DNA of 64,000 bases, from the NCBI GenBank assembly GCA_965217715.1, contig OZ244563.1, positions 1,289,188-1,353,187 on the forward strand, in the 5' to 3' direction. The stretch is from Candidatus Poribacteria bacterium. GTDB lineage: Bacteria; Poribacteria; WGA-4E; WGA-3G. The notes under the pieces are model-generated. The model saw nothing but the letters and a program-made list of their open reading frames with translations. It was not told the origin of the DNA and searched no databases. The position numbers were made by a program, and so were the translations under genes. Of the stretch, positions 2,934-36,068 are shown piece by piece (the stretch's first letter is position 1; each line of letters opens with the position of its first letter).

Positions 2934-3154
2934 GAAATATCTTATATTGTGCCCACCAATTGTATTCGCGCTAAAGGTTTTTAGGGAACTCCGCTAAAAA
3001 AGATAGTGACTCACAAGTTGAAGTTTAACATAAATTTGCATTGGATATCAAGCAATTTTCAGGATCGCGAGCAAGAACTCGTTCCTATAGGAAGGGTGGT
3101 TTACAAAGCACCACACCTCACAAATAATTGAAACGCATAACCCGTATTAAACAA

Positions 3155-4932: not shown

Positions 4933-4991
4933 CTTTAAAAAAGCAAAATGTACGCCAAATTGAAAAAATATACAATTTTATGTGTTTTTTC

Positions 4992-5761: not shown

Positions 5762-8700
5762 ATGCCCAATACTACTCAAACTAATGGAAGTGCATCAGAG
5801 TTACGACAACGTGTCTCCTTTGCCAAAACTCCATCGGCACTTGAATTGCCCGACTTAATTGAGACCCAAAAGCGATCCTACGCCGCATTTATGCAGCGTT
5901 TTGTCCCAGAAAATGAACGCGAGTCAAAGGGACTTCAGGCACTGTTCAAGGAAGTTTTTCCGATTTATGATTTTAAAGAAACTACAAGTCTGGAATTTGT
6001 CAGTTATACGCTCAGTCCACCGACACATGATCTTTCGGATTGTCAGGCACGCGGACTGAACTATCAGATGCGGTTGCAAGCCCGTCTGATGTGCGTCGAA
6101 CGCGAAAAAGATGAAGACACAGGGCAGACGCGTGTTTTAGATATTACTGAATCTGATGTTTACCTTGGTGATATTCCGTTGATGACTGAGAATGGAACTT
6201 TTATCATCAATGGATCCGAACGTGTAATCGTAAACCAGTTACATCGGTCTCCCGGTGTAATTTTTCTTGACAAATCGCATTCAGCAAGTACACAGAAACT
6301 CCCAACAGGACAGATAATCCCCTACCGCGGGGCATGGATAGAGTTTGAATTCGATTCAAAGGATTGCATCCACGTCCGGTTAGACCGTAAGAAAAAACTA
6401 TTAGCCACCGTGTTATTACGTGCACTCGGTTGGGCAACAGATGCACAAATCCTAAAACTTTTCAGCAGCACAGAGATCGTTCCGATGACACAAGATGTTA
6501 TCGGACGTGTTATCGCTGAACCTGTGGTTGATACCGATTCGGGTGAAGTCCTGCTTGAAGCAAACACAAAGTTGTCTGAAATAGAATTTGATCGACTCAC
6601 CGAGGCTAAGGTGTCAGAGGTAGAAGTGTTGGTGGAATCAGATGAACAAGAACTCCGATATTTGCGGAATACGCTTTCGCGTGACACCGTCAAGGCTTAT
6701 GCAGGAGGGACATTGCAAGAGGGCGCACTGCTTGAGATATTTCGGACCTTAAGACCTGGTGATGCGCCGACACGCGAAGCAGCGACAGCCTGTTTGGAAC
6801 GCCTCTTCTTTGATGGCGCACGTTATGACTTAGGCACCGTTGGAAGATATAAAGTGAATTCAAAATTTAGTGACATGTCTATCTATCTTGATGAATCTGG
6901 TGAGATGCCATCAGAAGAGATAAAGGTGCTTCGGAAAGAAGATATTGCTGCTACCTTGCAACATCTGATGCGCATCCGAAACGGACATCAAGAGGTAGAT
7001 GATTTAGACCATCTCGGCAATCGACGGGTGCGTGTCATTGGGGAACTTCTTGAGAATCAATTCCGTATTGCACTCCTACAAATGCGTCGGGCAGCGCGAG
7101 AGAAATTGAGCACTACTACCGACGCTCAGCTGAAAAATCCGAAGAATTTGGTGAATCCGAAGCCACTCATGATGTCACTCCGAGAGTTTTTCGGGTCTAA
7201 CCAACTTTCCCAATTCATGCAACAGATAAATCCGTTGGATGAACTTACCCATAAACGACGGATTTCAGCGATCGGTCCTGGCGGATTACATCGTGACCGT
7301 GCCACCGCAGCGGTCCGAGATGTCCATCGCACACATTATGGACGTGTCTGTCCTTTAGAAACGCCTGAGGGGCCCTCTATTGGTCTTATCGTCTCCTTAG
7401 CAACTTTTGCGCGTGTTAATCCGTACGGATTTTTAGAAACACCCTACCGCGCCGTTCGTAAAGGCAAAATTACCAAAGATGTTGAATATTTAACAGCAGA
7501 TGCAGAGGACAAATACCACATTGCCCCTGCAGATGCAATCTCTTCTCGTAACAAAGCGAAAACCATACGCACCCGTAAAGGGGAAGAAGTGCATCCGCGC
7601 GAACTTAAAGAGATTGACTACATCGGGATCGCCCCGCAACAAATTGTTGGTGTTTCTGCTGCACTCGTACCTTTTTTAGAGCATGAAGACGCTAACCGTG
7701 CGCTTATGGGTGCTAACCACCAACGACAAGCTGTGCCGCTAATCCGTCCAGAGGCACCATGGGTTGGCACCGGTATGGAACATCGCGCAGCGCGTGATGC
7801 AAATGCCATGGTCATCGCACAACGTGGCGGTATCGTTTCCAGTATTGATGCCGAAGAGGTCCTGATCCGGACTGGTCAAGCACTTCATCTTGAAGAAGGT
7901 GAGCATGGTTTCAGTGAAATGGGGTATGATGTTTATAAACTGAAAAACTTCAAACGGAGTAACAGTGGCACCTGTATCCACCAGCGTCCACGCGTTAATA
8001 TCGGGGATGTTGTTGAAGCAGGCGATGTTATTGCTGATGGCACAGCAACTGAAGGCGGGGAACTTGCACTCGGAAGAAATGTCTTGTGTGCCTATATGCC
8101 GTGGGGCGGACACAACTTTGAGGACTCAATCCTCATCAGCGAGTCGCTTATCAAGGATGATACATTTACCTCTATCCATATTGAAGAATTCGAAGTCGCC
8201 GCGAGGCAGACAAAGATGGGAGACGAAGAGATTACCCGCGATATTCCAAACATGTCTGCCCGTAGTCTTGCACAACTTGATGACGAAGGAATCATTCGGA
8301 TAGGTAGTGTCGTGGGAACCGGCAGTATTCTTGTTGGAAAGATTTCACCGAAAGGTGAAAGTGAATACGGCCCCGAAGAGAAACTGCTACGCGCGATTTT
8401 CGGGGAAAAAGTCAAAGAGGTCAAGGACGCTTCTGCCTACACCCGCCCAGGTGTAGAAGGCGTTGTCATTGACGTAAAGGTTTTCTCTCGCCACGCTACT
8501 CCGAGTAGCGAGCAAACCGCATGGCGACAAGAGGCATTCCGCAAGCAAATTGAACAGACATGGCAGGAGCAGTGTGAACAGGTCTCTGAACGTTTAACGG
8601 AAGAACTACGTGAAACTTTGGTCAACAAAGAACTCGCGTATCCTACGACCTTCGAGAATGATGCAGAAACTGGAGATGAGGACAACGCTGAGTCACCAAA

Positions 8701-9787
8701 GCAGTTAGAAGCAGGTGCCGTGTTGACACGTGAATATCTGGATATACTGTCGCGAAACGAACTTGAAGCACTTCAGATTACAGATGTAGATGCAGTCTCA
8801 TACATCAAGAACCTTCAAGAACTCGCCACCGGTAGGATTAATGCCTATACGCAGGAAAAAGAGGATGCGTTGGAGAAACTCGCTGCAGGCGAAGAGTTGA
8901 AACCAGGGGTTTTGAAACTTGTCAAAGTCTATGTTGCCACTCGTCGTACGATCTCCATCGGCGATAAAATGGCAGGACGCTACGGGAACAAAGGCGTTGT
9001 TGCCAAGATTCTGCCCGAAGAAGATATGCCATATCTACCAGATGGCACCCCTGTTGATATTGTTTTAAATCCTCTTGGTGTGCCTTCTCGGATGAATGTT
9101 GGTCAGATCCTTGAAATACATTTAGGTTTGGCATGCAAGGAACTCAGCTTGCATGTTGCCTCACCTGTATTTGACGGTGCTACAGAGGAAGAGGTTTTCG
9201 ACATGTTGGCGAAAACAGATTTACCTGAAAAAGTTAAACAAACCGGCAAAAGTGTGCTTTACGATGGACGAACTGGGGAACCTTTCGGACAGGAAGTAAC
9301 ATTCGGTTATGTTTATTTCCTCAAGTTAAATCACCTTGTTGCAGATAAAATGCATGCACGTTCAACCGGACCGTACTCCTTGGTGACACAGCAACCATTG
9401 GGTGGAAAGGCACAACACGGAGGACAACGCCTCGGTGAAATGGAAGTTTGGGCATTAGAAGCTTACGGTGCAGCCCACACACTTCAAGAGATGCTGACTA
9501 TTAAGTCGGACGATGTAAAAGGCAGGACTAAAATCTATGAATCTATTGTGAAGGGGCAAAGTCCCTTAAAACCCGGCACCCCTGAATCTTTCAACGTGTT
9601 AGTGAGAGAATTACAAAGTCTGGGCTTAAATGTGGAGTTATCTGAAGGCGATCCTGCGGATGCCGACTCAGAACAAGTAGGTCTACATGAAGCAGGATTC
9701 CCACTCTTGCACACGTTGGATACAATGGATCCCATAGATGAGGAACCACCCTTAAAACTCACTTGGGACACCGATGATGCCGAATAG
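5762..9787 (+). CDS. rpoB: DNA-directed RNA polymerase subunit beta
   Basis: 1341 aa with canonical blocks (FMQRF, GTFIINGSERVIVNQLHRSPGV, QFMQQINPL.ELTHKRRISA.GPGGL, HYGRVCP.ETPEG, NMQRQAVPL-like HQRQAVPL, GDKMAGRYGNKGV, HLVADKMHARSTGPYSLVTQQPLGGKAQHGGQR.GEMEVWALEAYGA). SD AAGGTGA lies upstream. Acidic C-terminal tail. Confidence 0.97.
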   Translation: MPNTTQTNGSASELRQRVSFAKTPSALELPDLIETQKRSYAAFMQRFVPENERESKGLQALFKEVFPIYDFKETTSLEFVSYTLSPPTHDLSDCQARGLNYQMRLQARLMCVEREKDEDTGQTRVLDITESDVYLGDIPLMTENGTFIINGSERVIVNQLHRSPGVIFLDKSHSASTQKLPTGQIIPYRGAWIEFEFDSKDCIHVRLDRKKKLLATVLLRALGWATDAQILKLFSSTEIVPMTQDVIGRVIAEPVVDTDSGEVLLEANTKLSEIEFDRLTEAKVSEVEVLVESDEQELRYLRNTLSRDTVKAYAGGTLQEGALLEIFRTLRPGDAPTREAATACLERLFFDGARYDLGTVGRYKVNSKFSDMSIYLDESGEMPSEEIKVLRKEDIAATLQHLMRIRNGHQEVDDLDHLGNRRVRVIGELLENQFRIALLQMRRAAREKLSTTTDAQLKNPKNLVNPKPLMMSLREFFGSNQLSQFMQQINPLDELTHKRRISAIGPGGLHRDRATAAVRDVHRTHYGRVCPLETPEGPSIGLIVSLATFARVNPYGFLETPYRAVRKGKITKDVEYLTADAEDKYHIAPADAISSRNKAKTIRTRKGEEVHPRELKEIDYIGIAPQQIVGVSAALVPFLEHEDANRALMGANHQRQAVPLIRPEAPWVGTGMEHRAARDANAMVIAQRGGIVSSIDAEEVLIRTGQALHLEEGEHGFSEMGYDVYKLKNFKRSNSGTCIHQRPRVNIGDVVEAGDVIADGTATEGGELALGRNVLCAYMPWGGHNFEDSILISESLIKDDTFTSIHIEEFEVAARQTKMGDEEITRDIPNMSARSLAQLDDEGIIRIGSVVGTGSILVGKISPKGESEYGPEEKLLRAIFGEKVKEVKDASAYTRPGVEGVVIDVKVFSRHATPSSEQTAWRQEAFRKQIEQTWQEQCEQVSERLTEELRETLVNKELAYPTTFENDAETGDEDNAESPKQLEAGAVLTREYLDILSRNELEALQITDVDAVSYIKNLQELATGRINAYTQEKEDALEKLAAGEELKPGVLKLVKVYVATRRTISIGDKMAGRYGNKGVVAKILPEEDMPYLPDGTPVDIVLNPLGVPSRMNVGQILEIHLGLACKELSLHVASPVFDGATEEEVFDMLAKTDLPEKVKQTGKSVLYDGRTGEPFGQEVTFGYVYFLKLNHLVADKMHARSTGPYSLVTQQPLGGKAQHGGQRLGEMEVWALEAYGAAHTLQEMLTIKSDDVKGRTKIYESIVKGQSPLKPGTPESFNVLVRELQSLGLNVELSEGDPADADSEQVGLHEAGFPLLHTLDTMDPIDEEPPLKLTWDTDDAE

Positions 9788-9795
9788 TTTGAAAC

Positions 9796-9887
9796 ATGGC
9801 TATCGGCTATCGGCTATCGGTAAGGGGAACTGATCTACATCACATATCTCTTATACTGAAAGCCGATGGCTAATTGCCGATAGCCAT
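9796..9887. other. Imperfect inverted repeat in the rpoB-rpoC spacer, including 3 x GGCTATC
   Basis: ATGGCTATCGGCTATCGGCTATCGG (9796-9820) pairs with AAGCCGATGGCTAATTGCCGATAGCCAT (9860-9887). The outer 12 nt are perfectly complementary. It ends about 15 nt before the rpoC SD. Confidence 0.6.
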
Positions 9888-9915
9888 TCCTACAACCATT
9901 AAAGGAGCAGAAAGA

Positions 9916-12900
9916 ATGGCAGACAAAGAAAAGCGATTTAATCGTATCTCTATCAGTATCGCCTCGCCTGAACAGATAAAGGATTGGGCAAAACGGACAT
10001 CCTGTAGACGGAGGAATCCAGCAAGCGATACATGGTCGTGTCCCGAGAGAGGCACCTGTGATTGCGGTGAAATCAAAAAGGCAGAAACGATTAACTACCG
10101 TAGTTTTCGCCCTGAAAATCAAGGTTTATTTTGTGAATCGACATTTGGTCCACAAAAAGATTTTGAGTGTAGTTGCGGTAAGTATAAACGGATTAAGCAT
10201 AAAGGGCTTATTTGTGACCAATGCGGGGTTGAGGTGACAAAATCACAAGTTCGAAGAGAACGGCTCGGTTACATCAAACTTGCCACCCCAGTTTCCCATA
10301 TATGGTTTTTTAAAGGGATCCCATCGCGCCTTGGCACGTTCCTTGAACTTGCTTCCCGACAGGTTGAGCGAGTTCTTTACTTTGAAGCGTTTATTGTCAC
10401 AGAGGTCATTGATGACAGTTGTGGTTTGGCTGAAAAAGATATCCTTACAGAAGCAGAAGTGAATGGTAAGCTACGTGAACACCCGGATTCGTTCCGGGCG
10501 GGAACAGGGGCTGAGGCAATTCAGGAACTGCTGCGTAAAATTGATCTGCCAGAAGATGTAAAAAAGTTCACAGAAGAACTTGAGGCAACTTCCAGCCACC
10601 AGAAAAAAGTTAAACTCTCAAAACAACTTAAGATGGTGGCAGGCTTTGACAAAGCAGAGATGCATCCTGATTGGATGATCCTTGATGTGCTGCCTGTGAT
10701 TAGTCCTGATCTTCGACCCTTAGTTTCTCTGGAAGGGGGGAGATTCGCAACGAGTGATCTCAACGATCTATATCGCCGCGTAATTAACCGAAACAACCGA
10801 CTGCAAAAACTTATTGATCTCCGGTCCCCCGAAGTCATCCTCCGAAACGAAAAGCGGATGCTCCAGGAATCCGTTGACGCATTTTTGGATAATGGCAGAC
10901 ACGGACGCCGCGTGACTGGACCTGGCAAACGTGCCCTCAAATCCTTATCCGATATCCTCAAAGGTAAAGTTGGACGTTTTCGACAAAACCTCCTCGGAAA
11001 ACGCGTTGACTATTCAGGTAGAAGTGTTATTGTTGTCGGGCCCGAACTTGAACTCCATCAGTGTGGGGTGCCTAAATTGATGGCTGTTGAACTTTTCAAG
11101 CCATTCATTATTGAGAAACTTTTGACAGCCGGAAAAGTGCAGACTATCAAACGTGGGAAATATCTGACCGAACACGTTACGCCGGACTCACCCATTTGGG
11201 AAGCATTAGAAGAAGTCATCGCTGACCATCCGGTTTTGTTAAATCGTCCGCCGACACTCCACAGGCTCGGAATTCAGGCGTTTATGCCAGTACTTGTTGA
11301 AGGGAAGTCAATTCGGATTCCACCGCTTGTTTGTAAGGCATTCAATGCTGATTTTGATGGTGACCAGATGGCAGTTCATGTACCGCTGTCTATTGAGGCC
11401 CGTACAGAGGCGAAGATGTTACTGCTCAGTAGCGGTAATATTCTCAAACCTTCGCATGGTGAACCGATTACGGTGCCGGAACTTGATATGATTTTAGGCG
11501 CAAGTTTTCTAACAAAGGCACTACCAGAACACCAAGAACGAGCAGCACAACTCCACGCTGCTTATGCTGAAAAATCACAAGATGCCGAATCAGGTAATGT
11601 TTTCGCATCACTGGAAAGTGAAGTATGGGCGAAGCGCCGTTTTACATCTGTGGATGAGGTGACACACGCACACGGGTGTGGAACACTTAAACTACATGAT
11701 TCGGTTCTACTGTTTTTCAAAGAACATCACGAACCGATCCTCACGACCGTCGGACGTGTTATTTTCAACGAGGTTCTTCCACATACAAACGGAACTGCCT
11801 CACTTACTTGGAAAGATGAGGCTACAGGTCTTGAATTGCCATTTTTCAACGAGGAAGCACGTAGCAGACGTTTGTCACAACTCGTCAAACGCTGTTTTAA
11901 CGAACTTGGTACCGCAGAAACTGTTGCGTTGTTAGATCGGTTACAGAAACTTAGTTTTGAGTACGCAACTCGCAGCGGAATTTCTCCTGGTATAAAGGAT
12001 TATTTGATACCGTTTGACAAAAAGGTTATTGTTGAGTTGACAGATAAACGAATTAAGTTTCTTGACGCAGAGCAAATACTTATAGACAGCCTAAATAATA
12101 TAAGTGCCTTGCTTGAAAGTCTCGAAATACGGCAAACCCAGCTTGAAAATCACGAAATACGGCTAGAAGAACTGTCAAAGCGCATGGATAACCTTGATGA
12201 TGAACTTGATGAAGAATTATCAAAGTCTAAGACCATCCGTGATGAGGTAAGTCAACTGTTTCAACATCTCAACGATCTACCAGAAGAATTATCAAAGTCT
12301 AAGACCATCCGTGATGAGGTAAGTCAACTGCTTCAACATCTCAATGATCGGCACAAAGAACTGCTAAAGTTTATTACCAACCTTGATGAAGAACTGCCAA
12401 AGCTCAAGACCATCCGTGATGAGGTAAGTCAACTGCTTCAACATCTCGATGATCTGCCAGAGTTTATGGGTAACCTTGATGATGAACTTGATGAAGAACT
12501 ACCAAAGCTCAAGACCATCCGTGATGAGGTAAAGGAATTACCAAAGGAACATTTTAAGGATCTATCAAAGTTTATGGTCAATCTCAATAAGGCAAGTCAA
12601 CTGCTTGAGCATCTCAATGATCTGCTTAAGCATCATAATGATCTGCCAAAGCGCATGGATAACCTTAATGATGAACTTGATAAAGAACTGCCAAAGCTCA
12701 AGACCATCCGTGATAAGATAAGTGAATTGCCAAAAAAACATCTTAATGATCTGCCAGAGCTTATGGGTAATCTTGATGATGAACGGCAAAAGTTTAAGAT
12801 CATCCGTGATGAGGTGGATCAACTGCTTCAACATCAGTCTATGGGCAATCCTGATGATGAACGGAAAAAGCTTCCTGATGATGAACGGAAAAAGCTTAAG

Positions 12901-15900
12901 ATCATCCGTGATGAGGTGGATCAACTGCTTCAACATCTCAATGATCTGCCAGAGTCTATGGGCAATTTTGATGGGATCAGTAAAGAAATTAAGCGTCTCA
13001 AACCTAAGGTAAGTGATCTGCTTAAGCGTCTCTCACAACAACTTGAGCGTCTTCCACTGCCAACACTTATGGACAATCATACTAAGGTACGTGAACTGTT
13101 TGTGCAGCGTGACGTAGAAGAAGTAGAGAACGAAAAGATTGGGATATGGTTTGTTGCTGTCACAGCAATTGAAGAACAACTGTTCACCGAACTTCCGACG
13201 ACAGAAACGTATTTGGTTGAACAAGATAAAGAGGTAGAAGGGTTTAGTCCGGTGCATCTGATGGCAGATAGTGGTGCCCGCGCGCGCAAAAATCCGTTCA
13301 TACAAATTAGTGCTATCGTCGGATTGAAGTCTAAACAGAGTGGTGAGATTCTGCCTACGCCGATCCAATCCTCCTATCGGGAGGGTTTGGATGTGCTGGA
13401 CTACTTTACCTCAACCTATGGATCACGCAAAGGGTTGGTGGATACCGCTATGAAAACCGCTGCCTCTGGATACCTCACGCGAAAACTGGTCGATGTTGCG
13501 CAAGATGTGTTGATTACCGAAGAGGATTGCGGCACAACGCATGGCATCCTCAAATTTACCACAAACGCTGGCTCCATTGGGTTCAAGATTAGTGGTCGTG
13601 TTACCGTGGAACCTGTAATACATCCCACGACAGAGGAAACACTGGTTGAAAATGAGACATTAATTACACCGCAGATAGCAGAAATTATTGAGGGTGCTGA
13701 AGTTCCGAGCGTTCGAGTCCGATCTATACTCACTTGCGAGGCAGAGAAAGGGGTCTGTGTTGCCTGCTACGGCGCTGATTTGACATCAGGACATCTCGCC
13801 AATGTTGGAGAAGCTATCGGCATCATCGCAGCGCAATCTATCGGCGAACCCGGGACGCAGTTGACAATGCGTACCTTCCATACAGGTGGTGTGGTTGAAG
13901 ATATGAGTGAACGCCTTGCACGTAAGATTATGGCAAAGGCTACAGGGAAAGTGCGGTTTCGTGATTTCATTCCCGGACGCACCGTCCGTGAAGAAGATGG
14001 ACTCTGGATTGTACAACAGGTTGCTGAACACCTTGACCAACCCAAATATAAGGTTAAAACCGTCCAACATCCTGAGTGCAAACTACAACCAGACGAACTC
14101 CTCACAGAGAAACAGCATCAAGAAAATCTTGAGCGCTTTCCTGGGTTTGCGGTAGAACCTATTGCCTATGAAGTTAGCAAAGTGACTCGACCGGATGTCA
14201 TTGAGGCAAACGGCGGAGAAGACTTCCCGTTGCAAGAAGGACAGTATCTAACGGAACACGAATACAACGCCTATTTTCATAGATTCTCACCGTTCCGATG
14301 TTCTGAACCGCACTATCGTGTGAAAAGTGTAAAACATTCGGATACTTTGCTGAAGGAAGGCACATTGCTGACAGAAAGCGAAGCAGAAACATGGCGCGCC
14401 GAAATCCGACCGTTTGACGGCGAATGGGTGTATGAAACGAAAAAGGGTACTATCCTTACCGAAAGTGAATATCTACAGAAACAGAACAGTGTTAAAGCGG
14501 AGATGAAGTATCAGATTCAGAAGGTAACGCATCCGAGTTGCCCGTTTAAGGAAGGGAAACTACTTTCTCCAGAGGAAGAGAGCCAATACCACATGGAACT
14601 CGATGAGCCGGTATATACCGTAACAGAAGTCAGCGATGATATTGACTTAACTGTGGATCAAGAATTGACTGCTGCAGAATTCCGACGTGCACAGGAGATG
14701 TTTAGAACATTTGACGTGCAACGTCCGTCAACGGCGTGGTGTCGTGTTACACAAGTCATGCACCCTGAATGTCCGCTAAAGCCTGACGAACTCATTGAGG
14801 TCGAGAAATTAGAAACGCTTCGAAATAAATTCAGTGGATTTACCGCAGAACGCCTCAAATATCGAATCACTGCTGTGCATCATCCGAATTGTAATCTGGA
14901 ACCTGAAACACTGCTCACCGAAAATGAGAAAAAAGCAATATTGAAGGAATATCCCGGGTTTGAAGTTGATGTCACTAAGAATGAAGAAGGGTTTGAGGTT
15001 GAACGGCTTTACCGCATTATTGCCTCACATCATCCTGAATTTCCTGGTGCTGTTGATGAATACATCACACAATCGGAGTCCAATCGATTCCGGCGAAACT
15101 ATAAGGGATTTGATTTTGAGAAACTTTACCTTCACGTACCTGAAGGGACTGAAACTGAAGAGACTTTGACAGAAGCGGACTACAAGGCACTTGTTAAACA
15201 GCATCGAGACACGGATACGCCCCCACCTAACATAAAACTGGTGTATCACGTCCTTGCCGTTCACCACGCTGAGTGTCCTTTTACTGCTGGACAACGGATT
15301 GATGAGGGTGAATATAAACGCGCACAACGGCTTTATAAAGGCTTTGATACTGAACGGGCTTTTAAGGTAACAGGTGTCGCTGAAACTGATTCCGAGATTG
15401 CTGTAGGCGATATTCTCAGTGATGCCGACTATAAAAAAGAAACGGCTTCCACTTCAAAGAATACCTACCGAGTGGAGAAGGTGATACATCCGAACTGTAC
15501 GCTTACTGTCGATCAAGAGTTGAAAGACTGGGGATATGCAACTGCCCTTGAACAATATACAGGTGTTGATGTAGATGGATTAGTTGAGACTTTCCGAATT
15601 GATGTTGATATTGCAGGTGGCGGGAGTGTGTCACACCTTATTCCCGCAGGTTATTCGGTTTCTGTTAAGGATGAACAACGCGTTAAAGCACAACATTCGT
15701 TAGCAGAATTGCAAGAAAAAACTACCAACCTTGACATTGTTGCTGGGATTCCGCGTGTGACGGAACTTTTTGAAGCGCGGCGTCCAAAACGCGAAGATGC
15801 TGCTGAAATTGCTGAAATCGATGGGTACGTGCAACTTACTGGACAGAAAGCTGGCGTGCCTCAATATCGAATCGTAGACGGTGCTACCAAAAGCCGTCTA

Positions 15901-16569
15901 TATTCTATTCCGGACGAAAAACGCCTACCTGAGGTTGACGATGGCGAGTGGGTCAAAGCTGGGGAACCACTGACAGAAGGATACCTCAACCCACATGACA
16001 TTCTTACCATTGGTAGAACTACCCTTAATGGACATTCTTTGGAAGGTGAAGAAGCACTTTGGGCATACCTTGTGGATGAGGTTCAGACAGTCTATCCGAC
16101 TGACAGCATTAACGATAAGCACGTGGAAGTGATTGTGCGACAGATGCTTCAAAAGATACGCATCCTATCTGTTGGGGACACAAAATTCTACGCGAACGAT
16201 GAAGTCAGCCGACACAAGTTCCACGCCGAAAATAGGCGCGTTGAACAAGATGGCGGCACCCCCGCAACTGGTGAACCTGTCTTACAGAGCATTAGTAAAG
16301 CATCACTCAGCACAGATAGTTTCATCTCTGCAGCGAGTTTCCAACAAACACCCAAGGTCCTCACAGATGCTGCTGTTGAAGGGCAAACAGACCTACTTAC
16401 TGGTTTGAAGGAAAACGTCATCCTTGGACGTCTTATCCCCGCAGGTACGGGGTTCGCTGAGTGGCAGGAACTTCAAGTATCACGTGACGCAATCGCTAAT
16501 CCAGATGCAGAAGAACTACCTGAACCGATTGTTGAACCAGAAGCGATTGCTGAGACGGTTGAGGAATAA
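9916..16569 (+). CDS. rpoC: DNA-directed RNA polymerase subunit beta-prime, giant form (2,217 aa) with lineage-specific insertions
   Basis: Start chosen at the ATG at 9916 (MADKEKRFNRISISIASPEQIKDW), preceded by AAAGGAG. Canonical blocks are present: CSCGKYKR.KHKG.ICD.CGVEV, NADFDGDQMAVHVPLS, MADSGAR, GYLTRKLVDVAQD, GEPGTQLTMRTFHTGG, GIPRVTELFEARRPK, INDKHVEVIVRQM. Three extra segments are described separately. Confidence 0.95.
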   Translation: MADKEKRFNRISISIASPEQIKDWAKRTSCRRRNPASDTWSCPERGTCDCGEIKKAETINYRSFRPENQGLFCESTFGPQKDFECSCGKYKRIKHKGLICDQCGVEVTKSQVRRERLGYIKLATPVSHIWFFKGIPSRLGTFLELASRQVERVLYFEAFIVTEVIDDSCGLAEKDILTEAEVNGKLREHPDSFRAGTGAEAIQELLRKIDLPEDVKKFTEELEATSSHQKKVKLSKQLKMVAGFDKAEMHPDWMILDVLPVISPDLRPLVSLEGGRFATSDLNDLYRRVINRNNRLQKLIDLRSPEVILRNEKRMLQESVDAFLDNGRHGRRVTGPGKRALKSLSDILKGKVGRFRQNLLGKRVDYSGRSVIVVGPELELHQCGVPKLMAVELFKPFIIEKLLTAGKVQTIKRGKYLTEHVTPDSPIWEALEEVIADHPVLLNRPPTLHRLGIQAFMPVLVEGKSIRIPPLVCKAFNADFDGDQMAVHVPLSIEARTEAKMLLLSSGNILKPSHGEPITVPELDMILGASFLTKALPEHQERAAQLHAAYAEKSQDAESGNVFASLESEVWAKRRFTSVDEVTHAHGCGTLKLHDSVLLFFKEHHEPILTTVGRVIFNEVLPHTNGTASLTWKDEATGLELPFFNEEARSRRLSQLVKRCFNELGTAETVALLDRLQKLSFEYATRSGISPGIKDYLIPFDKKVIVELTDKRIKFLDAEQILIDSLNNISALLESLEIRQTQLENHEIRLEELSKRMDNLDDELDEELSKSKTIRDEVSQLFQHLNDLPEELSKSKTIRDEVSQLLQHLNDRHKELLKFITNLDEELPKLKTIRDEVSQLLQHLDDLPEFMGNLDDELDEELPKLKTIRDEVKELPKEHFKDLSKFMVNLNKASQLLEHLNDLLKHHNDLPKRMDNLNDELDKELPKLKTIRDKISELPKKHLNDLPELMGNLDDERQKFKIIRDEVDQLLQHQSMGNPDDERKKLPDDERKKLKIIRDEVDQLLQHLNDLPESMGNFDGISKEIKRLKPKVSDLLKRLSQQLERLPLPTLMDNHTKVRELFVQRDVEEVENEKIGIWFVAVTAIEEQLFTELPTTETYLVEQDKEVEGFSPVHLMADSGARARKNPFIQISAIVGLKSKQSGEILPTPIQSSYREGLDVLDYFTSTYGSRKGLVDTAMKTAASGYLTRKLVDVAQDVLITEEDCGTTHGILKFTTNAGSIGFKISGRVTVEPVIHPTTEETLVENETLITPQIAEIIEGAEVPSVRVRSILTCEAEKGVCVACYGADLTSGHLANVGEAIGIIAAQSIGEPGTQLTMRTFHTGGVVEDMSERLARKIMAKATGKVRFRDFIPGRTVREEDGLWIVQQVAEHLDQPKYKVKTVQHPECKLQPDELLTEKQHQENLERFPGFAVEPIAYEVSKVTRPDVIEANGGEDFPLQEGQYLTEHEYNAYFHRFSPFRCSEPHYRVKSVKHSDTLLKEGTLLTESEAETWRAEIRPFDGEWVYETKKGTILTESEYLQKQNSVKAEMKYQIQKVTHPSCPFKEGKLLSPEEESQYHMELDEPVYTVTEVSDDIDLTVDQELTAAEFRRAQEMFRTFDVQRPSTAWCRVTQVMHPECPLKPDELIEVEKLETLRNKFSGFTAERLKYRITAVHHPNCNLEPETLLTENEKKAILKEYPGFEVDVTKNEEGFEVERLYRIIASHHPEFPGAVDEYITQSESNRFRRNYKGFDFEKLYLHVPEGTETEETLTEADYKALVKQHRDTDTPPPNIKLVYHVLAVHHAECPFTAGQRIDEGEYKRAQRLYKGFDTERAFKVTGVAETDSEIAVGDILSDADYKKETASTSKNTYRVEKVIHPNCTLTVDQELKDWGYATALEQYTGVDVDGLVETFRIDVDIAGGGSVSHLIPAGYSVSVKDEQRVKAQHSLAELQEKTTNLDIVAGIPRVTELFEARRPKREDAAEIAEIDGYVQLTGQKAGVPQYRIVDGATKSRLYSIPDEKRLPEVDDGEWVKAGEPLTEGYLNPHDILTIGRTTLNGHSLEGEEALWAYLVDEVQTVYPTDSINDKHVEVIVRQMLQKIRILSVGDTKFYANDEVSRHKFHAENRRVEQDGGTPATGEPVLQSISKASLSTDSFISAASFQQTPKVLTDAAVEGQTDLLTGLKENVILGRLIPAGTGFAEWQELQVSRDAIANPDAEELPEPIVEPEAIAETVEE
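12070..13130 (+). repeat. In-frame imperfect tandem repeats inside rpoC encoding a ~350-aa coiled-coil-like insertion
   Basis: The motif EL(S/P)K(S/L)K(T/I)IRDEV.QLLQHLNDLPE recurs at least 7 times. At the DNA level, 12211-12282 and 12283-12354 are near-identical 72-bp units. Flanks align to the two beta-prime rim helices (...DKRIKFLDAEQ / ...NEKIGIWFVAVTAIEEQL). Confidence 0.85.
13891..15741 (+). other. ~615-aa insertion in the beta-prime trigger loop made of ~13 degenerate 35-50-aa modules
   Basis: It lies between TFHTGG and IVAGIPRVTELFEARRP. The module signature Y(R/K)V..V.HP.C.L....LLTE.E......F.GF is visible in KYKVKTVQHPECKL, YRVKSVKHSD, YQIQKVTHPSCPF, CRVTQVMHPECPL, YRITAVHHPNCNL, YRIIASHHPEFP, YHVLAVHHAECPF, YRVEKVIHPNCTL and others. 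Confidence 0.8.
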
Positions 16570-30182: not shown

Positions 30183-30857
30183 ATGAACACAGAACAACTG
30201 AAAAAGATTGCCGCAGAAAAAGCCACTGAGGAAATCCGAAACGGTATGGTTGTCGGATTAGGCACAGGTTCTACCGTCTTCTATGCGTTATTAAAACTCG
30301 GAAAGATGGTACGCGATGGACTCAACATCGTTGGAATCCCGACCTCTGATGGCACAGAGGAAATTGCCAAAGAGCAAGACATTCCGCTTTCAACACTGGC
30401 AGTTCACCCGACAATAGAATTAACAATTGATGGTGCTGATGAGGTGGATGCACACCTGAACTTAATTAAGGGTGGCGGTGCAGCACTTGTCAGAGAAAAA
30501 ATTATCGCCAATGCCTCAAAACGAATCTTAATCGTTGTTGATGAAAGCAAGGTTTCTCGTGTGCTTGGCACTTCGTTCGCGCTGCCGGTTGAGATTGTGC
30601 AGTTCGGATGGGAGGCGACACAGCGCGAAGTTAATAAAATCTGTGGAAAATCAGATTTACGAGGTGGAATTGAAAATCCATTGATTACGGACAACGGAAA
30701 CTATATTTTGGACTGCCATTTTGATGGAATCCCTGAACCTGAAAAGGTTGAGTTGCAGCTGAATAATATCCCTGGTGTCGTTGAGAACGGTATTTTTGTG
30801 GATCGCGCTGACAAAGTTATCATCGGCACGTCTTCTGGTATCAAATACATGGAGTAG
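30183..30857 (+). CDS. rpiA: Ribose-5-phosphate isomerase A
   Basis: GLGTGSTV, DGADEVD, LIKGGGAALVREKI and VPVEI..FGW are classical RpiA blocks. Confidence 0.9.
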   Translation: MNTEQLKKIAAEKATEEIRNGMVVGLGTGSTVFYALLKLGKMVRDGLNIVGIPTSDGTEEIAKEQDIPLSTLAVHPTIELTIDGADEVDAHLNLIKGGGAALVREKIIANASKRILIVVDESKVSRVLGTSFALPVEIVQFGWEATQREVNKICGKSDLRGGIENPLITDNGNYILDCHFDGIPEPEKVELQLNNIPGVVENGIFVDRADKVIIGTSSGIKYME

Positions 30858-30862
30858 CATCA

Positions 30863-31687
30863 ATGATCCGACATCTAATCTTGTTCTGTTTACTGATTTA
30901 TGCATTGCTCACATTTTCCGCTCCTGTTAGAGGGGAGATTTTTACGGAGAGTGGTTTGGTAGATATTCCAACAGGTGAGGTGCTAAAACACGGTATATTC
31001 GGTGTAGGGGTATATGCCCCTTTCCAAAATACAACATATTTCAAACGGGATCCTGTTGCGTTCCGTGTCAACTTCGGGATGTTTGATAGAATTGAGTTTA
31101 GCGCATCACACATACTCCCGCAGGACAATGATGCCTCGCGTTCTTTCTTAGGACACGTGAAATCACAACTTTTAAATGAAACTGGAAAAATACCGAATGT
31201 AGCAATCGGTATTGACAATCTCGGAGATAATGTTATACAAGAGTGGAATACCTATCATGCTAATTCAGCATATCTTGTAATCAGTAAGACTTTTAATCTG
31301 CCGCGAATTCACCTTATTTCAGGACACATTGGTGTTGGTAACCACCGTTTTGCTTTTGATGAGAACCCAATCGGACTGTTCGTAGGTGTAAGCACAGAAC
31401 TTCATCCTGCATTCGCAAGAGGTGATATTGCGCTCAGTTTGGAATTTGATGGGAAGGGTGTTAATGCTGGTGTGCAGCATACTGCCGATAGTGGACTTGG
31501 GGTTGCTCTTGGCGTTGAAACATTGAACAAACCTGAAGATATCCGTTATCTCGTGTCAGTTTCGTGGACGAATGCACAGATGATGGAACAGATTGACGGT
31601 GCAAAACGGCTTGCCCGACAAGCAGCGAAACTCGCAAGTCAAGCAAAGAGCAAACCAACGAAAGAAGCGGGAACATCAGAACAGTAG
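30863..31687 (+). CDS. Hypothetical exported protein, possibly an outer-membrane beta-barrel (YjbH-like?)
   Basis: Signal peptide LILFCLLIYALLTFSAPVRG, alternating-hydrophobic beta-like segments, and a K/A-rich tail. No firm family recognised. Confidence 0.4.
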   Translation: MIRHLILFCLLIYALLTFSAPVRGEIFTESGLVDIPTGEVLKHGIFGVGVYAPFQNTTYFKRDPVAFRVNFGMFDRIEFSASHILPQDNDASRSFLGHVKSQLLNETGKIPNVAIGIDNLGDNVIQEWNTYHANSAYLVISKTFNLPRIHLISGHIGVGNHRFAFDENPIGLFVGVSTELHPAFARGDIALSLEFDGKGVNAGVQHTADSGLGVALGVETLNKPEDIRYLVSVSWTNAQMMEQIDGAKRLARQAAKLASQAKSKPTKEAGTSEQ

Positions 31688-31702
31688 CCCCATTTTCCTA
31701 AT

Positions 31703-32599
31703 CTATTGCTTTACTTCAATAGATTCCATCACATTTTGAAGCGATTTGAGCAACTCCGTCAAAAAATCCTGCGGTGGCACAAGGATAATCTCAATTCGGC
31801 GATTTTTTGCCTTCGCTTCGTCTGTTTCTGCTATATCTATCGGTTGATAGAATGCATATCCCGTTCCCGATAAACGTTTTGGATCAATGCCAGCATTTTC
31901 CTGTAAATACTTCACCGCAGAAATTGATCGGTCTGTAGAAAGGTCCCAGTTCCGTAGTGCCGAACCCGCGATCGGGTTGTTATCCGTATGTCCTTCAATG
32001 TGGATCGCATAATTCGAATAATCTGCATTCAACAGTACCTCTTCTGCAATTGCGTCAAGGAGAGCTTTTCCCTCTTTACTAAGGGTTGCGCTACCTGTTT
32101 CAAACAGAATCTTGCCCTTTACATCAAGTGTCAACCGTCCTGCTTCGTCCAGCACAGCACCAACTGTATCTTTAAATCTTTCTTGGATAGCCGCGATGGA
32201 ACGTTGCGACTGTTCGCGAATTCGCTGTAATTCCGATTCAATCTCATTCAGTTTTGCACGGAGACTCTCCTTTTCTTGTTCAAGATTACTTTTGTCTTGC
32301 TGGAGTTTGTTCCGCTCAGCAGCGATTTTCCGCGCCGCTTCGCTTGCATTTTCCAAAATCTCCTTCGTTTGGTTCAGTTCGGTCTGTGTTTCTTTGAGTG
32401 TCTTCTCAGTTTCCGTTAACTTCTTTTTCAACCCAGTTTTTGCTGCTTCAGTCGTCTGTAGTGTCGTTTTTATGGTAGATAGCTCTGCTTCCGTCTGCTT
32501 GAGTTCGTCAGAAGTTGAATAGAGCAGAACCCCCAGAACAATAGCTGCAATAACAGCAACGACTATAGATATGATCGAAACAATTCCTTTTGTGCCCAT
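31703..32599 (-). CDS. Membrane-anchored coiled-coil protein with a C-terminal OmpA/MotB-like peptidoglycan-binding domain
   Basis: ATG at 32599 (MGTKG) is preceded by AAGGAGAA and lies 1 nt after the RNHCP stop (TAAcATG). TM segment IVSIISIVVAVIAAIVLGVLLY, about 110 aa of K/E/T/Q-rich heptads, then the OmpA-like domain IEGHTDNNPI...NWDLSTDRSISAVKYL...NRRIEIIL. Confidence 0.8.
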   Translation of the reverse strand: MGTKGIVSIISIVVAVIAAIVLGVLLYSTSDELKQTEAELSTIKTTLQTTEAAKTGLKKKLTETEKTLKETQTELNQTKEILENASEAARKIAAERNKLQQDKSNLEQEKESLRAKLNEIESELQRIREQSQRSIAAIQERFKDTVGAVLDEAGRLTLDVKGKILFETGSATLSKEGKALLDAIAEEVLLNADYSNYAIHIEGHTDNNPIAGSALRNWDLSTDRSISAVKYLQENAGIDPKRLSGTGYAFYQPIDIAETDEAKAKNRRIEIILVPPQDFLTELLKSLQNVMESIEVKQ

Positions 32600-32600
32600 G

Positions 32601-32897
32601 TTATTCTCCTTGTAAGCTAAGTATGGCATCAAACCTATCTTCTTTTGATACCTTATTCTTTTTTGTTATACCGCACACGGTGCAACGATGGATCAAAACA
32701 TAATCCCCTTGTTTCATGGTAAATCTGATCGGTTCCATCAGCCCCTTACAATCCTCAGCACGATCCCCCGGATTTACATCTACATGCTGACTCCAGAGAC
32801 ATTCCGGACAGTGATTGGTGTATCCATCTCCCTTCACGAATACCCTGCAATTTCCGCATGTAAAATCTTCAATGTGACGTTGGAATTTTTTGTTCAT
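32601..32897 (-). CDS. RNHCP-domain zinc-ribbon protein
   Basis: 98 aa with CGNC, the eponymous TNHCPEC motif and a C-terminal HRCTVCG. ATGA overlap with the upstream gene. Confidence 0.7.
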   Translation of the reverse strand: MNKKFQRHIEDFTCGNCRVFVKGDGYTNHCPECLWSQHVDVNPGDRAEDCKGLMEPIRFTMKQGDYVLIHRCTVCGITKKNKVSKEDRFDAILSLQGE

Positions 32898-33508
32898 GGG
32901 CTGCTACTTGTTTCCTTCACATACGCGATTCGGTCTAATGTTCGTTTTAGACTTGGAGATACGGAGGCAGCACGTTCTAAATCCCAACGGTCACGGACAA
33001 ATTCACTCAAGCGGGTATTATATTCATCTCCCACATTAAGTGTTGTGCCGTGGGATGGTACTAATGCTTCGCGTAATCTTTTGTTTTTACTCCTTCTGGC
33101 AAGCGAGATAAGATATTCTTTTGGATTAGGAATATTGTCGGTGGAAATTGGAATACGATGCATCGGTATTGATAAGAAGGCTGCAAGTGCAACCCGATCA
33201 GCCATTATCCAAGATTCAACTTCAATAACAGCAACGCGAAAGAAAAATCTTGGGTTGAGAGAACCTTTAATCCAAGATTGAATGAGTCTTGGTGGACAAT
33301 TTTGGATGGAATCTAAATCTGTTAACATAAAAATGCCGCACTCTTCATGCGCCGCTTCATTGAAACTCTGTGCTTTTTGTTGAAGGTAAGAATTTCCTTT
33401 ATATCCAGTTTTTCGCTCAATTTCTATTCCAAAATGCCCAAGAATTTTAGTCGCAACTGCATCGCTTAACCTATCCTCAACAGCGAGAATTACGCTATTT
33501 AACCTCAT
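32894..33508 (-). CDS. Small Toprim-like protein (DUF4276/DUF4435/OLD-Toprim class)
   Basis: 204 aa. E11 sits in ILAVEDR, D64-x-D66 in FMLTDLDS, and E96-x-E98 in VIEVESWIMAD. This is the acidic triad order of Toprim-type nucleases. ATGA overlaps on both sides. Confidence 0.55.
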   Translation of the reverse strand: MRLNSVILAVEDRLSDAVATKILGHFGIEIERKTGYKGNSYLQQKAQSFNEAAHEECGIFMLTDLDSIQNCPPRLIQSWIKGSLNPRFFFRVAVIEVESWIMADRVALAAFLSIPMHRIPISTDNIPNPKEYLISLARRSKNKRLREALVPSHGTTLNVGDEYNTRLSEFVRDRWDLERAASVSPSLKRTLDRIAYVKETSSSP

Positions 33509-34647
33509 TCCAATAAATCCAATTGTTCTGCATGTCTGGTGAGTGCAATTTCCCCCACTGTAAATCCGTTCTTAAGGAGCACACACACATCATCATAATC
33601 AGAGGAAGGTTTAACTACAGTTCCTTCTTTGCCAGGTGTGAGCATTAACACTTCCGTGCCATCAATGCCTTGTTCTGTGAGAAGAGCATCACTTTGCGTG
33701 CTAACTAATACCTGACATCGCCTATTTCTCCGCATCCGAGAAATTAAAGGGGCAAGTTGAGAAACAATTCCAAGGTTTAATGAGAGTTCAGGTTCTTCTA
33801 ACAAAACTACTGAGTCGTTTTCAAGAAGGGTCCACAGTAGTCCAATAAGTCGAAGCATTCCATCCGAAAATTGATCTTCTTGATGTGTCTCTTCACTTGA
33901 AACCCAGTGCGAATAACGTGCCTGTAAATGTGGGTGCCCTGTGTTTTTGTCGCGAACAAATTCCAATTTTTCTAACTGTGGCACTGCAATTTTAAGCGCA
34001 TGTTCAATCTTTTTGAGGCGGGAACGACGGGTGCTCGGATGCACACTCGCAACCCTTTCAAGAAATCCCTGTCCAAACGGATCGTCTTCAATTATTTTGC
34101 CTTGAATCGCATCCGCATATCGGATAAATTGCGGAACCAAATGAAGATATGTGACATTTCTGAGAAATTTGCCAATTTCACGAAATTTTGCATTGGTCGC
34201 ACTTTGTTCAAGAGCGGTTTGAGTGAGGCGATCAGAATCCTCGTTGTCGTCTGCATCGGGTCTATCAAGAATCAATTTTCCCTCTTGCCACACACGTTCA
34301 TGAGTAAGGAAAGTCCGACGGTGTCCACGAGGTTCTTGAGTAAATCCCATGACATATCGCCATGTTGTAGGTGCGTCTGGAGTATCCGCTATGTGAATCT
34401 CAATCGAAACTTCGGGACCTTGCCGTGCTGCTAAACACCGGATTTTGGAAACACCATCTCGATCCTTAACGGCTTTCTGAAATCCACCACCATCCACTTT
34501 GGCAATATCACGGAGGAAACGAAAAATATCCAGCAGATTTGATTTACCCGAAGCATTTGGACCTACGATAAATTGTCGTTCTCTAAGTGGAACATTTATC
34601 TGCTGAAAATTTCGCCAGTTTTTGGCAATAAGTCGATTGATAATCAT
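33505..34647 (-). CDS. ABC/SMC-type (AAA_15/21/23-like) ATPase
   Basis: 380 aa. Walker A is G29PNASGKS36 after the typical N-terminal beta-strand (IINRLIAKNWRNF). Signature-like FSDGMLRLIGLL, Walker B/D-loop VVLLEEPELSLN, and H-loop-like LVSTQS. Confidence 0.8.
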   Translation of the reverse strand: MIINRLIAKNWRNFQQINVPLRERQFIVGPNASGKSNLLDIFRFLRDIAKVDGGGFQKAVKDRDGVSKIRCLAARQGPEVSIEIHIADTPDAPTTWRYVMGFTQEPRGHRRTFLTHERVWQEGKLILDRPDADDNEDSDRLTQTALEQSATNAKFREIGKFLRNVTYLHLVPQFIRYADAIQGKIIEDDPFGQGFLERVASVHPSTRRSRLKKIEHALKIAVPQLEKLEFVRDKNTGHPHLQARYSHWVSSEETHQEDQFSDGMLRLIGLLWTLLENDSVVLLEEPELSLNLGIVSQLAPLISRMRRNRRCQVLVSTQSDALLTEQGIDGTEVLMLTPGKEGTVVKPSSDYDDVCVLLKNGFTVGEIALTRHAEQLDLLE

Positions 34648-34829
34648 AATGATAAGTTTCCTCTAAAATAGGTATGGACGCGAATGTGATATGAAAATAA
34701 TAACATGTTCGTAGAATGGATTCCAACCCAAAACACTTATAAGCATTATGGCAAATGTTAATACAATTAGATGATTCCAATTTCTACGCTGTGCTGAGGC
34801 ACAGAGACTTTGCGCTACATTGGTTTGGA

Positions 34830-36068
34830 TTATAACTCAGCTCGTGTCATGAAGGTTGCATAGATAGCAGAGGTCCGCACCAGATCGGGAATATGCACAC
34901 GTTCATTTATAGCATGTCCACCTTCACCCTTCGGCCCATAGCCAATTCCCGGCAAACCTATATTGACAAAATAGTGTAAATCTGTAAACCCAGCAGTACT
35001 CTTAAATTTCGGTTGATTGAAACGTACAGTACGCACTGCATCAGCAAAACCTTGTGCTAAAGGAGAATCAGTATCCGTTAGACATGGTTCAATTCTCAAG
35101 ATTGCTCGCACTTCTGCTTTCAAATCCGGATAATACTCACATGCCCCAGAAATTGCTTGTCGCAAGTCAAGTTCGGCAAACTCAAGTTTTTCATTCGGTG
35201 TAACCCGCCTGTCAATCGAGAACGTGAGATGTGCCGGAACAGTGTTCACTTTATCCCCCTCAGTACCACGGAACGTCCCACCAATATTCATAGTTGGAAA
35301 ACGTTCACCGCCATCAGGCAGTTTTAATGCGCGTTCCGGTGACTTCAAATCCCGTTTAACCCGTTGTAACGCAGATACAAGTTCGGCTGTTTTCTCAAAC
35401 GCATTTATCCCTTTGTCTGGTTGAGACCCGTGTGCTGCTTTTCCGTGAACGTCAATTTCTAACCATAGCACGCCGTTATGCCCGTTGCCGATATTCATCT
35501 CTGAACCACCTTCACAGTTGACAACATAGTCTGCTTTGACCAACCCCTTTTCAACAATATATCCTGCTCCTAACTGCCCACCAGTTTCCTCATCACATGT
35601 GAACGAACATTCAACGTTAAACAACGGTTTACTACCGCTCTCTTGAACAGCCTGAATCGCAAACAGAAGTGAAGCGATGGCATCCTTCATATCATCTGCC
35701 CCACGCCCGTAAAGCCATTCACCTTCAATCTTCCCGCTGAACGGATCATCAAAACGCCACTCCCCCGAAACTGGCACCACATCGTAATGGGCGTTAAAAT
35801 GCACCGTCTTTGCTGCGCCGACATCCCAGCGAGCAATCAGGTTTAACCTTGGATGGCTTGATGCGTTTGAAATCACCTGATCTGCACGCCGTTTTGGCAC
35901 CTTCACAATTTTCGTCTTCATTCCCAACGTCTTACATTTTTCCTCAAGCAGCGCAACAATCTCTGCGTAATTCTCACCCGGAGGATTAACGGTCGGGGTT
36001 TTGACAAGTTCTTGCAACAATCCACACAACGAATCTTGATTGTCCTTAATGTAACTTTGTACAGACAT
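34830..36068 (-). CDS. M20-family metallopeptidase (ArgE/DapE/ACY1-like)
   Basis: The blocks HYDVVP, GRGADDMKDA, DEETGG and HG.AAHGSQP are typical M20 metal-ligand motifs. Confidence 0.8.
   Translation of the reverse strand: MSVQSYIKDNQDSLCGLLQELVKTPTVNPPGENYAEIVALLEEKCKTLGMKTKIVKVPKRRADQVISNASSHPRLNLIARWDVGAAKTVHFNAHYDVVPVSGEWRFDDPFSGKIEGEWLYGRGADDMKDAIASLLFAIQAVQESGSKPLFNVECSFTCDEETGGQLGAGYIVEKGLVKADYVVNCEGGSEMNIGNGHNGVLWLEIDVHGKAAHGSQPDKGINAFEKTAELVSALQRVKRDLKSPERALKLPDGGERFPTMNIGGTFRGTEGDKVNTVPAHLTFSIDRRVTPNEKLEFAELDLRQAISGACEYYPDLKAEVRAILRIEPCLTDTDSPLAQGFADAVRTVRFNQPKFKSTAGFTDLHYFVNIGLPGIGYGPKGEGGHAINERVHIPDLVRTSAIYATFMTRAEL

Follow-up and report, generated by a model that had tools for sequence, protein, structure and literature searches.

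The closest described relatives of the locus analyzed here belong to HEC-01 (Hma-embedded candidate 01), a two-gene candidate system of an ATP-binding cassette (ABC) ATPase and a TOPRIM protein that Payne et al. (bioRxiv 10.1101/2024.01.29.577857) found inside Hma systems and that is represented in PADLOC-DB v2. We focused on a block of four minus-strand genes, referred to as g1 to g4, at positions 31703-34647 of a 64,000-nucleotide stretch of a Candidatus Poribacteria genome (GenBank assembly GCA_965217715.1, contig OZ244563.1, positions 1,289,188 to 1,353,187 of the forward strand), which we call the window. The original prediction, made from the sequence of this stretch alone, saw in the block a candidate for an undescribed four-component defense-type system in which an ABC-type ATPase and a Toprim-like protein are joined by an RNHCP zinc ribbon and a membrane-anchored OmpA-like protein. 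Our analysis favors another reading, namely, that the locus probably consists of a HEC-01 pair (g1 and g2) and two genes of the Poribacteria chromosome backbone (g3 and g4), likely co-transcribed, and thus of two modules instead of one four-part system.

Both the list of open reading frames (ORFs) and the sequence itself confirm the four genes. The HEC-01A-type ABC ATPase of the AAA_21 family (380 amino acids) is encoded by g1 (33505..34647), the HEC-01B-type Toprim-like, DUF4276-related putative nuclease (204 amino acids) by g2 (32894..33508), and an RNHCP-domain zinc-ribbon protein of 98 amino acids by g3 (32601..32897). The last gene, g4 (31703..32599), encodes a protein with a transmembrane (TM) helix, a coiled coil and an OmpA-like domain, with a length of 298 amino acids from the ATG at 32599; an alternative TTG start lies upstream, at 32632. 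The start codon of g2 overlaps the stop codon of g1 by 4 bp in an ATGA at 33508-33505, g3 overlaps g2 in the same manner (ATGA at 32897-32894), and the g3/g4 junction reads caAGGAGaaTAAcATG. The strand, the two ATGA overlaps and the TAAcATG arrangement had all been described correctly.

Judged by their profile matches, the first two genes are members of the HEC-01 candidate defense family and not an undescribed pair, since they match the HEC-01A and HEC-01B models nearly end to end. Residues 1-374 of g1 align with positions 1-372 of the 382 in the HEC-01A model (PADLOC PDLC04180, E value of 9.6e-142), and residues 1-199 of the 204 in g2 align with HEC-01B (PDLC04194, E value of 8.9e-60), with all nine PADLOC matches of g2 falling on HEC-01 models. 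The two matches lie in adjacent genes on the same strand, which is the composition that defines a HEC-01 gene pair. The match to a named system extends to g1 and g2, while g3 has no match in PADLOC-DB and g4 matches ZorB/MotB models there solely through its OmpA-like C-terminal part.

The ATPase assignment of g1 is further supported by a match to Pfam AAA_21 (E value of 1e-31) and by the Walker A (G29PNASGKS), signature (F260SDGMLRL), Walker B/D-loop (V280VLLEEPE) and H-loop (S316TQS) motifs, all of which had been read from the sequence before and are conserved across 80 homologues. At the H-loop position, 55 of these 80 homologues carry a His and 24, including the window copy, a Gln; in the window, this replacement lies at 33694-33705 (residues 315-318).

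For g2, the match to Pfam DUF4276 (PF14103), a family assigned to the Toprim superfamily (PMC12065111), reaches 22.6 bits and stays below the cut-off of 30.2, and precomputed PF14103 matches are present on a few close homologues. The acidic residues of g2 pointed out in the original prediction (E11, D64xD66 and E96xE98) are present and, together with D12, are invariant in 40 homologues. The AlphaFold (AF2) model of g2 (pLDDT of 82, pTM of 0.83) shows the expected alternation of strands and helices, with strands at residues 5-10, 29-35, 57-64 and 88-93; E11 follows strand 1 and D64xD66 ends strand 3, so that the model has the alpha/beta fold, the Glu after strand 1 and the DxD after strand 3 that are expected of a Toprim domain. 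When the model was compared with known structures using Foldseek, each of the top five PDB matches was the C-terminal Toprim region of a class 2 OLD nuclease (probabilities of 0.69-0.99, four of them at 0.92-0.99; best PDB entries 6njw and 6nk8). A search of the PDB sequences with the g2 profile gave nothing significant (best E value of 0.69, RAG1). The residue conservation in the two proteins supports the catalytic competence of both g1 and g2, and the AAA_21 match, the Foldseek matches to OLD and the invariant E/DxD/ExE residues bear out the earlier placement of the pair in the general class of ABC-type ATPases with a small Toprim-like protein, alongside OLD, PARIS and Gabija.

The distribution of the four genes argues against a four-component system. 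We scanned a genome collection with a profile of g2 homologues, which yielded 80 loci (numbered here with the prefix L), mostly from Poribacteria, and screened these pair loci by tblastn with six window proteins. The pair is adjacent in all 80 loci, and it is followed by g3 in 39 of them and by g4 in 38, always at one syntenic Poribacteria locus. All syntenic genome loci but one carry a gene for a YjbH-like protein downstream (38 of 39; the short flank of L031 has no match), as does L089, which has no pair, and an M20 peptidase gene lies upstream at variable distance wherever the flank of a syntenic locus reaches that far. Given the conserved YjbH-like and M20 flanks, the 39 loci therefore represent a single orthologous chromosomal locus. 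In the other 41 of the 80 loci, the pair occurs without g3 and g4. These stand-alone loci cover every lineage outside Poribacteria in which the pair was found, i.e., Latescibacterota, Binatia, Entotheonella, Syntrophobacter, Acidobacteria, Thiotrichales and Pseudomonadales; about two dozen of them come from such other lineages, and the rest are further Poribacteria copies.

In the reciprocal scan, which was anchored on RNHCP in metagenome loci (n = 80), the pair was found once, in L091, which is again the syntenic Poribacteria locus, and the RNHCP gene occurs without the pair in the other 79. The combination of the pair with RNHCP and OmpA genes does recur outside the window, but it is confined to one inherited Poribacteria locus. 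We also found three Poribacteria backbone loci from which the pair is absent: L092 (M20 peptidase, 91% identical, followed by a WD40 gene, RNHCP and OmpA), L174 (M20, WD40, RNHCP, OmpA and, farther on, RpiA) and L089 (M20, CopG, type III methyltransferase, RNHCP, YjbH and RpiA), the last of which also lacks g4. In L011, g1 to g3 are retained and g4 is lost. Mobile elements have entered this region several times. An insertion sequence (IS) of the IS607 type, with a serine resolvase and a TnpB-like OrfB, splits g2 in L030 (5971-8001), and in L050 (8600-9980) and probably in L076 (8561-9985), g2 and g3 are separated by IS605 OrfB/TnpB-like genes; despite these insertions, g3 and g4 are intact in all three loci. 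Additionally, a DDE transposase gene is located upstream of g1 in L040 (5300-6463).

The evolutionary signal of the genes splits along the same line. For the 27 syntenic loci with full coverage, we compared the proteins by their pairwise distances and observed that the distances of the M20 peptidase, g3, g4 and the YjbH-like protein intercorrelate (Spearman coefficients of 0.67-0.81) and that those of g1 and g2 correlate with each other (0.65), whereas the correlation between g1/g2 and the former set is weak (0.17-0.41). At the nucleotide level, the flanks, g3 and g4 of the window are 85-89% identical to those of L005, versus 75% for g1 and 71% for g2. In comparisons with L034, L068 and L031, the identity is 60-70% over a stretch that begins at the 3' end of g1 and includes g2, and in every comparison it recovers at the g2/g3 junction, to 78-88%. 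In a neighbor-joining tree of g1 and g2 (calculated without bootstrap values), the syntenic cassettes form two groups that are paraphyletic to stand-alone pairs from other loci and other phyla. Because of the distances, the identity profiles and this tree, we consider g1-g2 to be the unit that diverges, recombines and is transferred, and g3-g4 to be part of the backbone.

Within g1, the divergence is uneven: relative to L034, L068 and L031, the 5' two-thirds are 80-89% identical, and the 3' third co-diverges with g2 (window 32894-33800). This suggests either that the C-terminal region of g1 forms a partner-specific interface with the Toprim protein, whose position would thereby be indicated, or that a recombination breakpoint lies inside g1. 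As to its distribution, the subfamily is concentrated in metagenome-assembled genomes of Poribacteria, Latescibacterota, Binatia and Entotheonella, where the proteins of different phyla are 50-70% identical. The four lineages are typically symbionts of sponges. Such sharing across phyla suggests that the two-gene cassette spread horizontally within one habitat.

The two downstream genes have family memberships of their own, both of which had been named correctly. The g3 protein is an RNHCP zinc ribbon with three CxxC pairs (PF12647, 102.3 bits against a cut-off of 24, E value of 1.4e-29). The pairs C14xxC17, C30xxC33 and C72xxC75 are invariant in homologues, as are the stretch G25-Y-T-N-H-C30 and C33, and at least 90% of 40 homologues have P31. 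Searching for RNHCP homologues returned 412 at E values of ≤1e-3, with 55-65% identity in lineages of the candidate phyla radiation (CPR), such as Falkowbacteria, Paceibacterota and Moranbacteria, and in other phyla. The motif GYTNHCPxCLWSxHVDVNPGDR is near-invariant from Poribacteria to CPR bacteria. A PDB sequence search with the g3 profile returned nothing significant (best E value of 0.023, Sgf11 zinc finger), the best Foldseek matches of the g3 model (E value of 0.2) were generic zinc-ribbon subunits of RNA polymerase I and ribosomal proteins, and a literature search on "RNHCP" returned chemistry papers only.

Regarding its genomic context, the RNHCP gene recurs directly beside genes for pseudouridine synthases, overlapping that of TruB by 4 bp and abutting that of TruA, and beside a gene for an aminoacyl-tRNA synthetase (Pfam tRNA-synt_1b); a CNNM protein is another neighbor. 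A radical-SAM/SPASM enzyme is encoded directly downstream of it in seven loci, and further neighbors are ABC transporters, DHH proteins and a reverse transcriptase; RNHCP loci of note are L086 (5001-6118), L171 (4242-5306), L084 (5001-6377), L093, L098 and L102. Taken together, g3 encodes a widespread and strongly constrained zinc protein that probably has a housekeeping role; it is a gene of the Poribacteria backbone and not a dedicated HEC-01 component. RNHCP emerges here as a very conserved, uncharacterized small zinc protein with a wide distribution in CPR bacteria.

The g4 protein is a single-pass membrane protein with a coiled coil of ∼110 amino acids and a C-terminal OmpA-like peptidoglycan-binding domain (PF00691, 69 bits against a cut-off of 27.2, E value of 4.6e-19), which spans residues 176-278 of the 309-amino-acid ORF. 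Among NCBIfam models, it has partial matches to the PRK09039 peptidoglycan-binding protein and to MotB-family models, all of them far below the respective cut-offs. Like g3, g4 is a backbone gene.

In the window, the backbone continues on both sides of the block. The upstream anchor is a gene for a peptidase of the M20/M28 family on the minus strand (34830..36068; Pfam Peptidase_M20, E value of 3.6e-34). Downstream, the YjbH-like gene (30863..31687, plus strand; Pfam YjbH, E value of 1.1e-6) is convergent with g4, and rpiA (30183-30857; Pfam Rib_5-P_isom_A, E value of 1.4e-62) lies beyond it. The spacer 5' of g1 (34648..34829, minus strand) comprises 182 bp and is AT-rich, with a GC content of 35.7% compared with 43.8% across the window. 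The hairpin that the original prediction had placed in this spacer, after the M20 peptidase gene, does exist as a 6-bp stem (CTGTGC/GCACAG, 34789-34804), but its folding is not above chance (z = -1.4 for the surrounding 76 nucleotides, with 19 of 200 shuffles folding at least equally well); it has no T-run and is absent from the terminator calls. A promoter-like TTGGAA-18-TATTAT at 34726-34697 in the spacer is likewise within the shuffle expectation.

The same spacer corresponds to a variable slot, which in relatives contains IS elements, a type III methyltransferase gene or between zero and three genes with WD40 repeats. The WD40-repeat genes (∼650-730 amino acids) are arranged in tandem on the same strand between the M20 peptidase gene and g1 (L001, 617-6719; L007, L010, L028, L068 and others). 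The slot of the window holds none of them, and across the loci, eukaryote-like repeat proteins vary in copy number at one fixed site. We considered the large slot genes as possible defense cargo and rejected this, as they encode WD40-repeat proteins except for the type III methyltransferase of L089. In that locus (2441-4990), a CopG-like gene and a gene for a type III DNA methyltransferase of 622 amino acids (PADLOC MTase_III, E value of 1e-173) lie upstream of RNHCP, and no restriction subunit is evident near the methyltransferase. Elsewhere in the window, two very large, adjoining plus-strand ORFs of 1341 and 2231 amino acids occupy positions 5762-16569.

The stand-alone pairs mostly lie among ordinary genes of metabolism and transport. 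Their neighbors include genes for a GFO/IDH oxidoreductase, a Rieske dioxygenase, an ABC-2 transporter, a short-chain dehydrogenase/reductase and a TonB receptor. A few pairs adjoin restriction-modification (RM) methyltransferases or an HKD+Snf2 helicase (L077, L062 and L042), which fits the origin of HEC-01 as a system embedded in defense systems. In a Poribacteria subclade of stand-alone pairs, a protein of 660-705 amino acids with an FRG domain and TPRs is encoded directly upstream on the same strand (L052, 4631-6706; L056, L057, L059, L064, L072 and L075; PADLOC PDC-S15, E value of 1.6e-17). This arrangement may represent a three-gene variant or two adjacent candidates.

Several observations weigh against our division of the locus into two modules and against a defense role of the pair, and we gather them here. 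The packing of the four genes exceeds chance. Across the 41 syntenic loci (the 39 genome loci, L091 and the window), the 4-bp overlap of g2 and g3 is kept in 31, g1 and g2 overlap by 4 bp in 28 and by 10 bp in 8, and the distance between g3 and g4 is -8 or +1 in 33. Scans of positions 31500-35000 gave 5 promoter-like sites versus 6.9 expected from shuffles and 4 terminator-like sites versus 3.2 expected, with nothing above the shuffle expectation; no internal promoter or terminator was detected within the four-gene block, the scan being a weak one. Given the conserved g2/g3 overlap and the lack of detected internal signals, the four genes probably form one transcript in Poribacteria, where the operon structure is read from gene geometry only. 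An arrangement kept for so long could reflect function instead of inertia, and stand-alone pairs could, in principle, use RNHCP and OmpA proteins encoded elsewhere in their genomes. As for the pair itself, the OLD fold matches of g2 have low TM-scores of 0.35-0.39 (E value of 2.5e-3), and the defense role of HEC-01 is weakly established, with the E. coli K-12 assays of Payne et al. (bioRxiv 10.1101/2024.01.29.577857) showing no protection. The gene neighbors of the subfamily are mostly metabolic, no match to it was found in the phage collection searched, and the plasmid search returned a single distant match on a Ralstonia megaplasmid.

One explanation built on the packing is a Poribacteria-specific four-gene system, in which the pair recruited RNHCP, e.g., as a zinc-ribbon sensor or adaptor, together with the OmpA protein, so that envelope events would lead to nuclease activation. 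The four-gene order in the 39 genome loci, L091 and the window, the g2/g3 overlap, the overlapping or abutting g3 and g4 in most loci and the missing internal signals all agree with it. However, the association is limited to one inherited locus with conserved flanks, g3 and g4 carry the signal of the species and backbone instead of that of g1 and g2, and the pair is transferable without them, as seen in the 41 stand-alone loci and in at least eight other lineages. The parts also persist separately, with g3-g4 kept without the pair (L092 and L174), g3 alone (L089) and g1-g3 without g4 (L011), and the IS605-type elements between g2 and g3 in L050 and L076 leave g3-g4 intact. In CPR bacteria, RNHCP occurs at 55-65% identity in unrelated contexts. 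Close packing is, moreover, compatible with incidental read-through; in L092, L089 and L171-173, RNHCP likewise trails whichever gene comes before it by 0-33 bp. We therefore regard this explanation as very unlikely. A related form, in which RNHCP and the peptidoglycan-tethered protein modulate or localize the ATPase-nuclease as a lineage-specific extension of HEC-01, e.g., in envelope sensing, seems similarly improbable; if g3 and g4 were indeed functionally recruited, the locus would present a case of an ATPase-Toprim module that is connected to the cell envelope.

A separate question is whether the pair is primarily antiviral. It could instead be a domesticated or selfish (addiction-like) element, or a housekeeping ATPase-nuclease for nucleic acid processing, that is kept vertically at a fixed site. 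Its stable retention at one Poribacteria locus, with 65-88% protein identity, is in agreement with this, as are metabolic neighbors instead of defense islands in the window and at most stand-alone loci, the lack of protection in the original test of HEC-01, and the phage and plasmid searches. On the other hand, protection of E. coli B by one HEC-01 representative has been reported for at least one of the phages T4, T5 and T7 (bioRxiv 10.1101/2024.09.26.614923), and compared with the flanks, the 3' part of g1 and g2 show a mosaic divergence of the kind typical of immune genes that evolve fast or are exchanged. Furthermore, several relatives adjoin RM or helicase defense genes, a PDC-S15-like FRG protein is encoded upstream in one clade, and the spread of the pair extends over phyla with a common habitat. 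We consider this alternative unlikely.

Under the two-module reading that we prefer, the first module would be the AAA_21 ABC-type ATPase translationally coupled to the small DUF4276-related Toprim nuclease. By analogy with OLD, Gabija and PARIS, the ATPase may act as the sensor and as a scaffold that keeps the Toprim protein inactive, until a phage-derived trigger or an aberrant nucleic acid causes an ATP-dependent change that frees or activates the nuclease. The putative metal-dependent nuclease, with E11, D64xD66 and E96xE98, would then cut nucleic acid and thereby stop the infection or the cell. The second module, g3-g4, would belong to the conserved chromosome backbone that runs from the M20 peptidase through RNHCP, the OmpA anchor and the YjbH-like protein to RpiA, with g4 predicted to be a membrane-anchored coiled coil bound to peptidoglycan through its OmpA-like domain. 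The HEC-01 pair would occupy the variable slot upstream of RNHCP, where it appears to have been retained through much of the Poribacteria radiation and to have diverged or recombined independently of the backbone. In this sense, what the locus contributes is a sponge-symbiont subfamily of a candidate defense system that had been catalogued before, and it illustrates that tight packing, even with overlapping stop and start codons, is insufficient to infer a multicomponent system.

Finally, we compared the locus with the known systems that share parts of its architecture. The likeness of g4 to ZorB of Zorya and to flagellar MotB lies in its N-terminal TM helix and its C-terminal OmpA-like domain, where ZorB models match with an E value of 1e-17. 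A ZorA/MotA-like partner is absent within ∼10 kb of g4, where the genes encode RpiA, an oxidoreductase, a sugar isomerase-like protein, a cupin and an extracytoplasmic function (ECF) sigma factor. The TM helix is free of acidic residues in all 39 g4 orthologues, the plug and linker are replaced by a long coiled coil, and the MotB-family NCBIfam scores of ∼97 bits reach about a third of the cut-offs of 283-301. We thus rejected g4 as a ZorB/MotB stator subunit on account of the missing partner, the missing acidic residue and the subthreshold scores, and the Zorya analogy drawn in the original prediction reduces to a shared OmpA-like C-terminal domain.

Mad3/Mad4 of MADS and the DUF4276 variants of Menshen NsnC resemble the pair in combining an AAA-type ATPase with a Toprim domain of the DUF4276 class. 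The NCBIfam MAD3 model (NF047739) scores 71.2 bits against 420, however, and the PADLOC mad3 model gives an E value of 6e-18 versus 1e-141 for HEC-01A; next to the pair, the window has neither a methyltransferase gene nor any other gene of MADS or Menshen. Membership in MADS was rejected because the MAD3 score is below the equivalog cut-off. OLD and GajA of Gabija likewise combine ATPase and Toprim domains, but they do so in one fused polypeptide, in contrast to the two genes found here. As GajA matches only residues 1-52 of g1, the domains are unfused and no GajB/UvrD helicase gene lies in the neighborhood, we also rejected membership in Gabija.

PARIS (AriA/AriB) is a split system of an ABC ATPase and a small Toprim nuclease, and its AAA_21-type AriA model matches g1 with an E value of 7.6e-28. 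In contrast to PARIS, g2 has no AriB/DUF4435 match at E values of ≤0.1, and g1 matches HEC-01A far more strongly than AriA; with the AriB partner missing, membership in PARIS was rejected. PARIS is nevertheless the most likely mechanistic analogue, in which an ATPase scaffold releases a nuclease upon a trigger. HEC-01 itself differs from the window pair in three respects: the pair is not embedded in Hma but located in the housekeeping backbone of a genome of the sponge-symbiont type, it is translationally coupled to the downstream RNHCP gene, and the window copy has a Gln for the H-loop His. What the two share is the two-gene unit of an AAA_21-like ABC ATPase with a small TOPRIM/DUF4276-like protein, and the metal-binding acidic residues of g2 agree with those reported for HEC-01B by comparison with BpOLD.

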